Part shown: positions 1 to 2,557 of the stretch, in pieces | Layout: each line of letters opens with the position of its first letter | Numbering within the stretch: the stretch's first letter is position 1 | NCBI GenBank assembly: GCA_041937175.2 | Contig: CP166615.1 | Location: 1,440,001-1,504,000 of the forward strand | Reading direction: 5' to 3' | From: Limnothrix sp. BL-A-16 | Lineage (GTDB): Bacteria; Cyanobacteriota; Cyanobacteriia; CACIAM-69d | DNA: 64,000 bases | Position numbers and translations under genes: made by a program | Notes under the pieces: generated by a model | Database searches by the model: none | What the model was told of the DNA's origin: nothing | Seen by the model: only the letters and a program-made list of their open reading frames with translations

Positions 1-936
1 GGCGGACTTGGTGAGGGCGGAACCGGCGACCGTCTTGGCTACGGCGCGGGCGGCGGCTTCGTCGGGCGCACCGCTGACGGCCACTTCAATCAAGCAGGTG
101 GCCCCTTCGCCGTCCCGGGCGATCGCCTTGGCCAAGTGGGTGCAAACCGCTGTCAGCATGGCTTCTAGCTTTTCGGCTTCTGGGCCCCATTGGGTGATTG
201 CCGGGGTGCGCGACTGACCGTTGGCCAGGGCAAAGAGGGAATCGTTGGTGCTGGTGTCGCCATCGACGGTGATTTGGTTGAAGCTGCGATCGCCCGCCCG
301 CGACAGCATTTCTTGCCAGAGCTGGGGCGACACAGCCGCATCGCAGGTGACGAACGCCAGCATCGTCGCCATGTTCGGGTGAATCATCCCCGATCCCTTC
401 GACATCCCGCCAATCCGCACGGGGCGATCACCGATCGTAGTTTCCAGGGCGATCGACTTGGCCACCAAATCCGTTGTCAAAATCGATTTTTCGGCGCTGG
501 CTCCCCCCTCGTCGGACAGGGCCGCCACCACCTGGGGAATTCCGGCCCGCATCGGTTCCATCTTGATCCGCTGCCCGATCACGCCCGTGGAAGCCAGCAA
601 GACCGTGTTGGGATCAATATCCAGTTCTTTAGCCAGCAGTTGGGCGCATTCTTCCGCGTCAGCCACGCCAGCGGCTCCCGTGGCGGCGTTGGCTTGACCG
701 GCGTTTACCAAAATGGCGCGGGCGCTGGGCTTGGCTTGCAGGCGATCGCGACAGTAGTCCACGCAGGCGGCCCGCACCTGGCTGGTGGTGAAAATCCCAG
801 CGGCGATCGCCTCCACTTCAGAGTAAATCAGGGCCAAATCTGGCGCACCCGAGGGTTTCAAGCCCGCCGTAATGCCCGCCGCCTTGTATCCCTTAGGAGC
901 CGTTACGCCGCCGGAAATCACTTGCCAATCTGCCAT
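1..936 (-). CDS. argJ: Bifunctional glutamate N-acetyltransferase / amino-acid acetyltransferase (3' end runs off the window)
   Basis: Not in the ORF track. Manual minus-strand translation from ATG at 936 gives MADWQVISGGVTAPKGYKAAGITAGLKPSG...KGSGMIHPNMATMLAFVTCD, which contains the ArgJ autoproteolysis motif (ATML). Confidence 0.95.
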   Translation of the reverse strand, partial: MADWQVISGGVTAPKGYKAAGITAGLKPSGAPDLALIYSEVEAIAAGIFTTSQVRAACVDYCRDRLQAKPSARAILVNAGQANAATGAAGVADAEECAQLLAKELDIDPNTVLLASTGVIGQRIKMEPMRAGIPQVVAALSDEGGASAEKSILTTDLVAKSIALETTIGDRPVRIGGMSKGSGMIHPNMATMLAFVTCDAAVSPQLWQEMLSRAGDRSFNQITVDGDTSTNDSLFALANGQSRTPAITQWGPEAEKLEAMLTAVCTHLAKAIARDGEGATCLIEVAVSGAPDEAAARAVAKTVAGSALTKSA

Positions 937-1039
937 GAGTCGATCGCCCTTTCACGATTGCTAAGTTGCCCAGAGTCCGGGCAATTGGGTGATTATAGCA
1001 AGGTCATTTCGGGCGATCGCGCTGCTTCTGTCACAGGAT

Positions 1040-1200
1040 CACGATGCAAGTATTTTTGACATCCTCCCCACCGCAAGCGGGCGGAGAAACCCAAGCCTCA
1101 CGACTTGGGTTTCTGCTTCATAGCACCTGCCTTCCAAGACTTGCTCTCTTCGGGTCTTACGGTCGCTCCACAGACTGAAACCGCTAGCCCAGCAGCCATC
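1040..1200 (-). ncRNA. Putative TnpB omegaRNA/reRNA scaffold plus ~16-nt guide
   Basis: Overlaps the tnpB tail and right end. It has the hairpin AGAAACCCAAGTC-GTGA-GGCTTGGGTTTCT and a second GC-rich hairpin before TCAA. The guide would be the flank AAATACTTGCATCGTG. Confidence 0.6.
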
Positions 1201-1237
1201 TATAAACTTAGCACGCCTTAAATCCCAGAATTGCTTG
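1056..1237 (-). mobile_element. Non-autonomous IS200/IS605-family mini-element (tnpB internally deleted)
   Basis: On the minus strand it is preceded by TTGAT (1242-1238) and ends in GGATGTCAA with subterminal hairpins. It contains the 33-aa mini-ORF 1199-1098, MAAGLAVSVCGATVRPEESKSWKAGAMKQKPKS, which I recognise as a cyanobacterial TnpB C-terminal tail. Confidence 0.8.
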
Positions 1238-1285
1238 ATCAAAATAGCCGATCATTCCGACAAATTGCGGCAATTTTGAATCAAT

Positions 1286-2557
1286 TTATTTTGGATTAAT
1301 TGGTAAACGAATCAGAAATTGAGTGCCTCGCCCTAGTTCTGACTGCACTTCCAAAGTACCGCTATGCTTTTCAGACACAATCTGATGGGCGATCGCTAGG
1401 CCGAGTCCTGTGCCCTTGCCAACGGGCTTGGTTGTAAACAGCGGCTCAAATAATCGTTGCTTGACTAACTCATTCATGCCAATTCCATTGTCAGCAATAC
1501 AAACCGCGATTTGCTGATCATTGGTAGTCTGAGTTGTAATTTGAATTTGCAGCCCAGAATCGAGGGTTTGGCCTTTCAATGCGCTCTCATCTAGGGCATC
1601 GATCGCATTGGCTAGCAAATTCATAAACACCTGATTGATTTGCCCTGGATAGCAAGGCACGAGTGGCAATTCGCCATAGGACTTGAGAACCGAAATTTCA
1701 GGACGATGATCACTACTTTTCAATCGATGTTGCAAAATCATCAAAGTGCTGTCCAGACCTTCATGCAAGTTTGCTGGAATTTTAGTTTCGGTGTCAGAGC
1801 GAGAGAAAGTACGCAGCGATGTGGAAATGCCGCGAATTCGATCAGCTCCCAGCGTCAAGGAATTGATGATCTTGAGGCTATCTTCAAAAATAAAATCCGG
1901 TTCCAAATCTTCCAAAACGGCGGCTAATTCTGGTGAAGGCTGTGGATGTTCTTGCTGATAGAATCGCAAGATTTCTGCCATGTTGTTGATGTGCTCTCGC
2001 AGCGGATCTACATTGCTAGCAATGAAGTTGATGGGATTATTGATTTCGTGCGCAATCCCCGCAAGCATCTCTCCTAAGCTGGATAGCTTTTCCTGCTGAA
2101 CCAGTTGGACTTGCATCTTTTGTAGATCGGCTGTGCGTTCATGGACTTGATGTTCCAGGGACTCCGTTAGTTTTTTGAGTTTGAGGTGAACCTGTAATCG
2201 AGCTAAAACTTCTGTTTGATCAAATGGCTTGGGAATGTAGTCTACTGCTCCGAGGGCAAAGCCTTTAGCTTTGTTTTCTGTGTCTGAAAAAGCAGTTGTA
2301 AAAATAACTGGAATAGACCTTGTGAGTGGATTGGCTTTGAGGCGGCGGCAAGTTTCAAAGCCGTCAATACCTGGCATTTGGACATCTAGCAAAATAAGAT
2401 CTGGAGGATTGCGATCGACCTGCGCCAACGCACTTTCACCATCGATCGCCACGCGAAAACGCAACCCGGCACTATTCAGCGCCTCCGATAAAACCGCCAA
2501 GTTAGTTGGATTGTCATCCACAACTAAAATAAATTCATTCGACGCAGATGCTGACAT
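1286..2557 (-). CDS. Response regulator receiver - histidine kinase hybrid
   Basis: N-terminal REC (ILVVDD, LLDVQMP, YIPKP); H-box AHEINNP; N-box NLLANAIDA; G-boxes DNGIG and GTGLGL. Confidence 0.93.
   Translation of the reverse strand: MSASASNEFILVVDDNPTNLAVLSEALNSAGLRFRVAIDGESALAQVDRNPPDLILLDVQMPGIDGFETCRRLKANPLTRSIPVIFTTAFSDTENKAKGFALGAVDYIPKPFDQTEVLARLQVHLKLKKLTESLEHQVHERTADLQKMQVQLVQQEKLSSLGEMLAGIAHEINNPINFIASNVDPLREHINNMAEILRFYQQEHPQPSPELAAVLEDLEPDFIFEDSLKIINSLTLGADRIRGISTSLRTFSRSDTETKIPANLHEGLDSTLMILQHRLKSSDHRPEISVLKSYGELPLVPCYPGQINQVFMNLLANAIDALDESALKGQTLDSGLQIQITTQTTNDQQIAVCIADNGIGMNELVKQRLFEPLFTTKPVGKGTGLGLAIAHQIVSEKHSGTLEVQSELGRGTQFLIRLPINPK

Follow-up and report, generated by a model that had tools for sequence, protein, structure and literature searches.

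A probable orphan relic of a gene-less IS200/IS605 mini-element with a TnpB guide-RNA scaffold, located between a histidine-kinase gene and an argJ-like gene in Limnothrix sp. BL-A-16

The DNA analyzed here (hereafter, the window) is a stretch of 64,000 nucleotides from Limnothrix sp. BL-A-16 (G000:C1:1440001-1504000), whose 4.56-Mb genome is assembled in two contigs and reported as 100% complete. Near the start of the window, a hybrid histidine-kinase/response-regulator gene and an argJ-like gene are separated by a 350-nt spacer that harbors a short transposon-derived sequence (the relic) on the minus strand, co-oriented with both neighbor genes (Table 1). The relic lies 64 nt past the kinase stop codon and 56 nt ahead of TGCTATAAT. 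This motif, the likely -10 element of the argJ-like gene, is conserved in two congeneric genomes (G001 and G002) and was not called in our promoter scan because it has no -35 match. Comparisons were made across eight genomes of the order: these three congeners, one genome from another genus of the same family (G007), and four of genus g2. A preliminary description had read the locus as a 182-bp stand-alone TnpB guide-RNA cassette, that is, an IS605 mini-element from which a deletion had removed the nuclease gene.

The coding capacity of the relic is restricted to a 33-codon open reading frame, too short for a transposase or a nuclease, which had been described as the C-terminal tail of a TnpB protein. 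This identification proved correct. In a whole-genome tblastn search, 30 of the 33 residues (90.9%; E = 7.8e-11) were identical to the C terminus (...AAGLAVSVCGATVRPEESKSRKAGAMKQKPRS) of a 391-aa TnpB encoded by a full-length element in G002 (locus L018, positions 426-1601; hereafter, the parent). At the DNA level, the window copy is 82% identical to the 3' end and right end of the L018 tnpB element, and identities of 82 to 88% (E = 1e-36 to 1e-48) were observed to tnpB 3' ends and mini copies across G001 and G002. The parent protein contains the Pfam domains HTH_OrfB_IS605, OrfB_IS605, and Cas12f1-like_TNB and scores 377 bits on the NCBIfam model NF040570 (guided_TnpB); its scores on NF038281 (IS200_TnpB; 376.2 bits, cutoff 425) and NF038280 (IS607_TnpB; 218.5 bits, cutoff 350) are both below cutoff. 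The 33-aa tail gave no match in a Pfam search. Its ATG arose at the deletion junction, where the parent has TTG (Leu). Full-length parents and sibling mini-elements had been suggested as search targets; the parent was recovered in G002, and the BL-A-16 genome has three gene-less copies, the window copy included.

At its right end, the relic stops in TCAA as originally proposed, with GGATGTCAA as its last nine nucleotides. All copies agree on the consensus GA(G/A)GATGTCAA and diverge directly after it, which places the right end at the last A, window position 1056. The left boundary had to be revised. It had been drawn at TTGAT|CAAGCAATTCTGGG; however, CAAGCAATT(C/T)TGG(G/A)ATT is also present in the orthologous, element-free spacer of G001, so that the 17 nt following this TTGAT are host flank, and the TTGAT itself (1242-1238) is part of a T-run behind a terminator-like hairpin rather than an element edge. 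Homology to the element family instead starts at ~1221, within the loop of the left-end hairpin. In the parent and in intact siblings this hairpin reads CCGCCCT-loop-AGGGCGG; the window copy retains the 3' arm only, and the 5' arm (CCCCGCCC in siblings and parent) is missing. The element is thus ~166 nt long (1221..1056) rather than 182 bp and, lacking the TAM and the left-end 5' arm, should be immobile.

Table 1. Features of the relic locus and copies of the element in the BL-A-16 genome (window positions unless a contig is given)
Feature	Position	Strand	Basis or remark
Hybrid histidine-kinase/response-regulator gene	2557..1286	minus	Upstream neighbor of the relic
Host flank, non-element: terminator-like hairpin (1261-1247), T-run with TTGAT (1242-1238), then CAAGCAATTCTGGGATT	1222..1261	minus	Terminator scan; comparison with the G001 spacer
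Whole relic: left-end-truncated, gene-less mini IS200/IS605 (IS1341-type) element, ~166 nt	1056..1221	minus	Homology to sibling and parent copies; both flanks conserved in the element-free G001 spacer
Left-end remnant: loop and 3' arm of left-end hairpin plus linker, including TGCTAAGTT (1213-1205)	1200..1221	minus	Aligns to ...TTTCAGGGCATGCTAAATTACAG of copy G000_b
Predicted omegaRNA-type scaffold, 149 nt	1056..1204	minus	Model R1, 167.4 bits; consensus structure; covariation in 38 family members
33-codon tnpB tail ORF plus stop, MAAGLAVSVCGATVRPEESKSWKAGAMKQKPKS	1199..1098	minus	ORF list; 90.9% identity to the parent tail
Helix 1 (GGCUGCUG...UAGCGGUU)	1179..1197	minus	85.4% of cells paired; both-side changes in 6/8 pairs
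Helices 2 and 3: long-range stem UCUGU/GCAGA around an inner stem; RAGATH-18-like core CUGUGGAGC...AUGAAGCAGAA	1112..1174	minus	Subthreshold match to Rfam RF03064; pair counts
Helix 4 hairpin, CCCAAGUCGUGAGGCUUGGG	1090..1109	minus	Both-side changes in 8/8 pairs
Helix 5: subterminal right-end imperfect palindrome	1065..1087	minus	Both-side changes in 8/9 pairs
Right-end tip GGATGTCAA, cleavage-site end	1056..1064	minus	Common to all copies; divergence immediately beyond
Flank in guide position, AAATACTTGCATCGTG, 16 nt	1040..1055	minus	Homologous to G001 empty-site target CAATACTTGCATCGTG, preceded by TTCAT
TGCTATAAT, likely -10 of the argJ-like gene; context, outside the element	992..1000	minus	Read directly; conserved in G001 and G002
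argJ-like gene	936..1	minus	Downstream neighbor of the relic
Own-genome copy: window copy	C1, window 1056-1221	minus	
Own-genome copy: G000_b-type	C1:287527-287687		Orthologous to a G001 copy
Own-genome copy: cpcB-cpcA spacer	C1:3665241-3665409; intact mini-element, L003 1486-1666 (C1:3665226-3665406)	plus	Orthologous in G000, G001, and G002

By homology to the parent, the predicted guide-RNA scaffold covers the last 33 tnpB codons through to GTCAA, with the flank coming next. Eleven copies from the genus and family were aligned (149 nt, 81% mean column identity), RNAalifold yielded five helices, and from the same alignment we built a covariance model, R1, which had matches in 68 of the 151 cyanobacterial genomes sampled (E up to 0.001). 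Across 38 members fitted to R1, a procedure that favors the structure, 93.1% of cells were paired and 28 of 35 pairs showed changes on both sides; none of 500 shuffles reached these values, and slid controls paired at 39 to 48%. All five helices can form in the window copy (MFE z-score, -1.89), whose R1 score of 167.4 bits is the highest of the three copies in the genome. The two hairpins recognized in the preliminary description exist as helices 4 and 5 (1109-1090 and 1087-1065), embedded in this larger covarying structure. The helix 5 palindrome has two identities: as DNA it is the TnpA-type hairpin, and as RNA it forms the final stem of the scaffold. Helix 4 is lengthened in the window copy by two substitutions (GGGAAU to GGGUUU), leaving UUUCU after the helix; at 1088 and 1089, the metatranscriptome contigs have the consensus bases, and other strains have GGGAAU at this locus.

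When positions 700-1600 were scanned against Rfam (E up to 10), RAGATH-18 (RF03064) gave the one meaningful match, which at 22.4 bits (E = 0.17) fell short of its gathering score of 44.9. Given the homology and the predicted structure, we assign the stretch to the omegaRNA/reRNA-type scaffolds, while by score it is not a member of Rfam RAGATH-18. Matches to the rnk leader and PK-IAV models in the same interval (E about 1) were dismissed as chance. A shorter version of the core is found at the 3' ends of three nearly identical 391-aa tnpB genes of the BL-A-16 genome (G000:C1:1042431-1042533, 3988798-3988900, and 3504703-3504805). There the RAGATH-18-like motif scores 29.5 to 31.2 bits, again below threshold, which suggests that cyanobacterial variants whose inner stem is short escape the Rfam model.

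Related copies were detected by DNA search in four of the eight genomes (G000, G001, G002, and G007), and the four g2 genomes yielded none. None of the three copies in the BL-A-16 genome adjoins a tnpB gene. The copy in the cpcB-cpcA spacer is an intact sibling mini-element with its right end ~35 nt ahead of the cpcA start codon; this spacer is short and element-free in G007 and G004. The copy is sense oriented and must be co-transcribed with the phycocyanin operon. In G000 and G001, it has GUGACGUAG in place of the conserved GAUGAAGCAG motif, which has mutated.

One deletion junction is common to the window copy, G000_b, G001_b, and the copies in the cpc spacer: in each, the left end plus ~35 nt is joined to (A/G/T)TGGCCGCTGGG. 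A different and longer deletion junction is found in G001_a. Since siblings at other sites carry the junction of the window copy, that copy arrived already gene-less and did not lose its gene locally. The deletion envisaged in the preliminary description therefore holds as regards the loss of the nuclease gene and the retention of a complete scaffold and right end, but it did not take place at this locus. No repeat identifiable as its cause was found at the junction. G000_b and the cpc copy of G000 have both subterminal palindromes, and the window copy has the right-end one only; it is a truncated, not an intact, member of the PATE or gene-less mini IS200/IS605 elements. Its affiliation with IS605 was correctly recognized at the outset, as was the 16-nt flank (1055-1040) in guide position.

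ISDra2 reportedly combines a TTGAT TAM and a TCAA right end with an omegaRNA lying over the tnpB 3' end. By description only, the present family is alike in having an omegaRNA over the tnpB 3' end, a TCAA right end, and a TTNAT-like TAM. TTNAT precedes five of six independent sibling insertion sites (TTTAT twice, TTCAT twice, and TTGAT once), 9 to 13 nt before GGGTC at intact left ends; the sixth site, that of the full-length parent, has TTCAG. These sites fit an ISDra2-like TAM (TTNAT) for the family as a whole. The TTGAT at the relic locus, unlike that of ISDra2, is host sequence and not a TAM.

The orthologous spacer in G001 (locus L024) is element-free: the left part, CAAGCAATTTTGGAATT, is kept, the right part reads ...GGCAAACTTCAT|CAATACTTGCATCGTG, and R1 found no match in it with filters off. 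An empty site in a relative had been predicted in a TTGAT version; the one in G001 exists but reads TTCAT|CAATACTTGC. This arrangement fits insertion without target duplication, the left junction of the window copy itself having been deleted, and the G001 site looks like the pre-insertion state, with TTCAT running directly into what in G000 is the flank of the right end. One strain variant in the metatranscriptomes (positions 1054 and 1055) restores the exact CAATACTTGC after GTCAA.

Opposite the relic (window 1055-1220), L024 (G001:C64) has an unrelated, A+T-rich stretch of ~156 bp in which a direct repeat containing GCGATC, ATAAATTGCGATC, occurs twice. In G002, a rearrangement is seen at precisely this position, upstream of ACTTGCATCG. 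The insertion site may be a recombination hot spot, judging from these three spacers.

Among 28 loci from other genomes, 10 have full or near-full tnpB genes and 5 have partial ones (some cut by contig ends); a further locus has an internal deletion, 4 retain a short tail only, and 8 have no TnpB match. Selection for the whole scaffold was considered, as the deletion derivatives all keep at least 150 nt of the 3' end, and was set aside: the loci were found with the full-length, 149-nt RNA model, so scaffold retention here is ascertainment and not evidence. Counting the right-end tip motif recovered at least one shorter remnant.

The preliminary description had proposed that a TnpB encoded elsewhere, or a nuclease-dead derivative, could load the RNA in trans. 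Five intact tnpB genes are present in the BL-A-16 genome. Their products are 44.7% (a 426-aa protein), 38.9%, 38.9%, 38.0%, and 32.6% identical to the parent TnpB, so a search with that protein found no cognate TnpB in the genome, the outcome for which the preliminary description itself had foreseen an inert relic. G001 likewise has no cognate (best identity, 47 to 48%); among the three congeneric genomes, only G002 has one, as an intact gene and a pseudogene with three stop codons. A nuclease-dead TnpB was not evident either, and the idea was dropped: read by eye, each of the five TnpBs of the genome retains its RuvC D, E, and D motifs.

The 426-aa TnpB locus has a right end (GGAATCCCC-hairpin-GGGGAGGATGTCAA) nearly the same as that of the relic, and the last ~35 nt of the scaffold are common to both. 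Its score on R1 is 44 bits versus 167 for the relic, and the 5' two-thirds of the two scaffolds differ. As for the transposase, profile searches of the BL-A-16 genome found no canonical IS200 TnpA. The only clear Y1 (HUH) protein is a 265-aa RAYT-like ORF (L030 1459-2256; G000:C1:1721486-1722283), which adjoins no tnpB gene. It passes the Pfam cutoff and stays under those of both the REP-transposase and the IS200 models (IS200 TnpA, 22 bits; cutoff, 55); besides it, there is one weak Y1 fragment.

An extended -10-like motif had been noted at the left end. The motif, TGCTAAGTT, is indeed present ~7 nt upstream of helix 1, and the siblings G000_b and G001_b have TGCTAAATT at the same position; however, the scan of positions 850-1450 called no sigma-70 promoter-like sites, with the proviso that it requires two hexamers and that a -10-only promoter would escape it. 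The terminator scan left helices 4 and 5 uncalled and called only the weak upstream hairpin at 1261-1247. RNA data came from four of 24 runs: three metatranscriptome runs (X2, X3, and X4) and one polyA raw-read run (X21). The metatranscriptome libraries contributed two, one, and three contig pieces, unstranded and without transcript ends, that cover 800-1166, 883-1103, and 869-1040 and in which the right-end part is joined to argJ. X21 yielded no reads at the locus, and the RNA evidence as a whole speaks for neither transcription nor silence. In record 2 of run X2, a wastewater metatranscriptome, the 5' part of the scaffold runs into the coding end (...DRDVNAARNI-type) of a full-length tnpB belonging to another element; environmental RNA libraries therefore also contain full-length relatives of the parent.

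The guide-position 16-mer of the window copy has no other site with 0 or 1 mismatch in the genome, and none of its 2-mismatch sites in the own genome follows TTNAT. Regulatory retargeting of the TldR kind was dropped as well, since all three own-genome copies match only their own flanks at 0 to 1 mismatch.

Taking the observed homology, boundaries, and structure together with the absence of a cognate TnpB or canonical TnpA, we consider it likely that positions 1056-1221 are an immobilized, orphaned relic of a gene-less PATE-type mini IS200/IS605 element and that the relic is inert. The lineage is that of a tnpB-only, IS1341-type transposon widespread in cyanobacteria. Its history would have begun with a full-length element composed of a left end, tnpB, an omegaRNA region over the tnpB 3' end, and a right end. 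An internal deletion would then have fused the ~35 nt past the left-end hairpin to the last 33 tnpB codons, and the resulting mini-element of ~205 nt could have been mobilized in trans. Once the G001 lineage had split off, one copy would have entered the spacer ahead of the argJ-like gene, on the 3' side of a TTCAT. A later deletion would have cost it the TAM and the first bases of the left end, together with the 5' arm of the left hairpin and ~135 bp of flank. What remains would be an intact guide-RNA scaffold beside its original target flank, persisting passively. The chronology, the TAM, and the absence of function are our inferences; that insertion preceded the left-end deletion is suggested by comparison with one outgroup spacer.

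Could the relic instead be a working stand-alone guide-RNA gene? Transcription of such a gene would start at the -10-like TGCTAAGTT or come from read-through. A noncognate TnpB (most plausibly the 426-aa protein) would load the RNA in trans, and AAATACTTGCATCGTG would direct the complex to the allele without the element (TTCAT + CAATACTTGC...), for instance on DNA taken up from relatives. The scaffold is undecayed and structured, its right-end module is common to the 426-aa TnpB locus, the -10-like motif is conserved in the sibling lineage, an empty-site allele with a TAM is present in the congener G001, and the contig coverage would be in keeping with a transcript that crosses the right end and continues into argJ. 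Precedents include stand-alone omegaRNAs reported to be active in trans with compatible effectors (PMC10691335) and PATEs that "often encode omegaRNAs" needing TnpB in trans, in the wording of PMC10055086. Nevertheless, we regard this as unlikely: the best own TnpB is just 44.7% identical to the parent, the scaffold of the 426-aa locus differs over its 5' two-thirds and falls far short of the relic on R1, no promoter was called, the RNA contigs showed neither transcript ends nor strand, and the same orphan state is found in G001. Moreover, the absence of the left-end hairpin means that the relic would not be excised, so that the known homing role has nothing to protect. A broader version, in which the orphan scaffolds of the genus would be loaded by the 426-aa TnpB through the right-end-proximal module that is all they share with it, seems to us a long shot. 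If it were true, one nuclease would be served by a repertoire of fixed guides, in addition to the solo scaffolds that the 426-aa TnpB has of its own. The window copy would serve to tag incoming DNA that has the element-free allele ahead of argJ (TTCAT + CAATACTTGC...), and the cpcB-cpcA copy, kept in three species within a very strongly transcribed operon, would be made abundantly.

The position of the relic, co-oriented with its neighbors and at the short distances given above from the kinase stop and TGCTATAAT, would also suit a role in cis, in which the hairpins act as a terminator, an insulator, or an RNA-stability element between the kinase and argJ-like genes, or belong to a long argJ 5' leader. 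The two substitutions that extend helix 4 and place UUUCU behind it point the same way, as do the RNA-library contigs linking the right-end part to argJ. However, the terminator scan called neither helix, the MFE z-score is only -1.89, G001 has the same gene pair without the element, and other strains carry the consensus GGGAAU at this locus; we hold co-option in cis to be very improbable. Scarcely credible is the translation of the 33-codon ORF into a functional small peptide. Most sibling minis do have ATG, GTG, or TTG at the junction, and both the window copy and G000_b have an open frame, but no Shine-Dalgarno-like sequence is visible upstream (read by eye), Pfam returned no match, our reading of the alignment has the frame broken early in the cpcB-cpcA siblings, and RNA pairing accounts for the conservation pattern.

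The relic can be compared with several known elements. The IS605-type PATEs of Haloquadratum walsbyi are too small to encode a transposase, have no inverted terminal repeats, cause no target duplication, and carry subterminal palindromes, as described in PMC3119063. The relic resembles them in being too short for a transposase and in its subterminal palindrome, and probably also in having neither inverted terminal repeats nor a target duplication; unlike them, it resides in a cyanobacterial host, and the window copy has the right-end palindrome only, the left one being truncated. Gene-less, PATE-like IS elements of Geobacillus stearothermophilus encode omegaRNAs and are acted on in trans by TnpB (Meers et al., PMC10055086). 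The relic is likewise a gene-less IS200/IS605 derivative whose omegaRNA would need a TnpB from elsewhere. In G. stearothermophilus, as reported there, compatible TnpB and TnpA are encoded in the same genome and omegaRNA expression was demonstrated (PMC10055086), whereas in BL-A-16 neither a cognate TnpB nor a canonical TnpA was found and the scaffold is known from sequence. Mobilized stand-alone omegaRNAs that have no effector and are active in trans with compatible effectors were described by Altae-Tran et al. in 2021, as summarized by Altae-Tran et al. in 2023 (PMC10691335). The relic shares with them its descent from a mobilized omegaRNA without effector or transposase; it differs in that G002, a different species of the genus, is the only place where the matching effector was seen. 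RAGATH-18, according to PMC11061315, is the core of the guide RNA (reRNA) of IS607-type TnpB and is separate from the coding sequence. The relic has the core motif CUGUGGAG...GAUGAAGCAG(G)AA within the same outer stem, whereas its RNA overlaps the tnpB coding end and its score is below the Rfam threshold (22.4 versus 44.9 bits). The idea put forward in the preliminary description is already in print, because such elements are described in PMC3119063, PMC10055086, and PMC10691335; the relic is genuine yet unremarkable, a left-end-truncated, orphaned representative of a known class.

By itself, the relic carries little weight. It is a cyanobacterial example of gene-less IS200/IS605 derivatives that keep a TnpB guide-RNA scaffold, and a clean case of what follows the loss of a parent that carried the nuclease: in two of the genus's three species, orphan scaffolds are all that is kept, and one scaffold has become fixed between cpcB and cpcA. 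For annotation, it explains a structured repeat and a spurious 33-aa ORF, and the analysis yields a covariance model of a cyanobacterial omegaRNA family found in 68 of the 151 sampled genomes. Should orphan RNAs of this kind turn out to be loaded by a noncognate TnpB, this would bear on the modularity of TnpB-guide pairing.

A second gene-less scaffold family was observed in the BL-A-16 genome, homologous to the 3' end of the 426-aa tnpB gene (C1:672069-673349) and scoring 25 to 50 bits on R1. Its copies lie at G000:C1:2102748-2102914, 3908959-3909126, 1228926-1229100, 3639875-3639989, and 1071439-1071587, and the matching 426-aa TnpB is present in the same genome.
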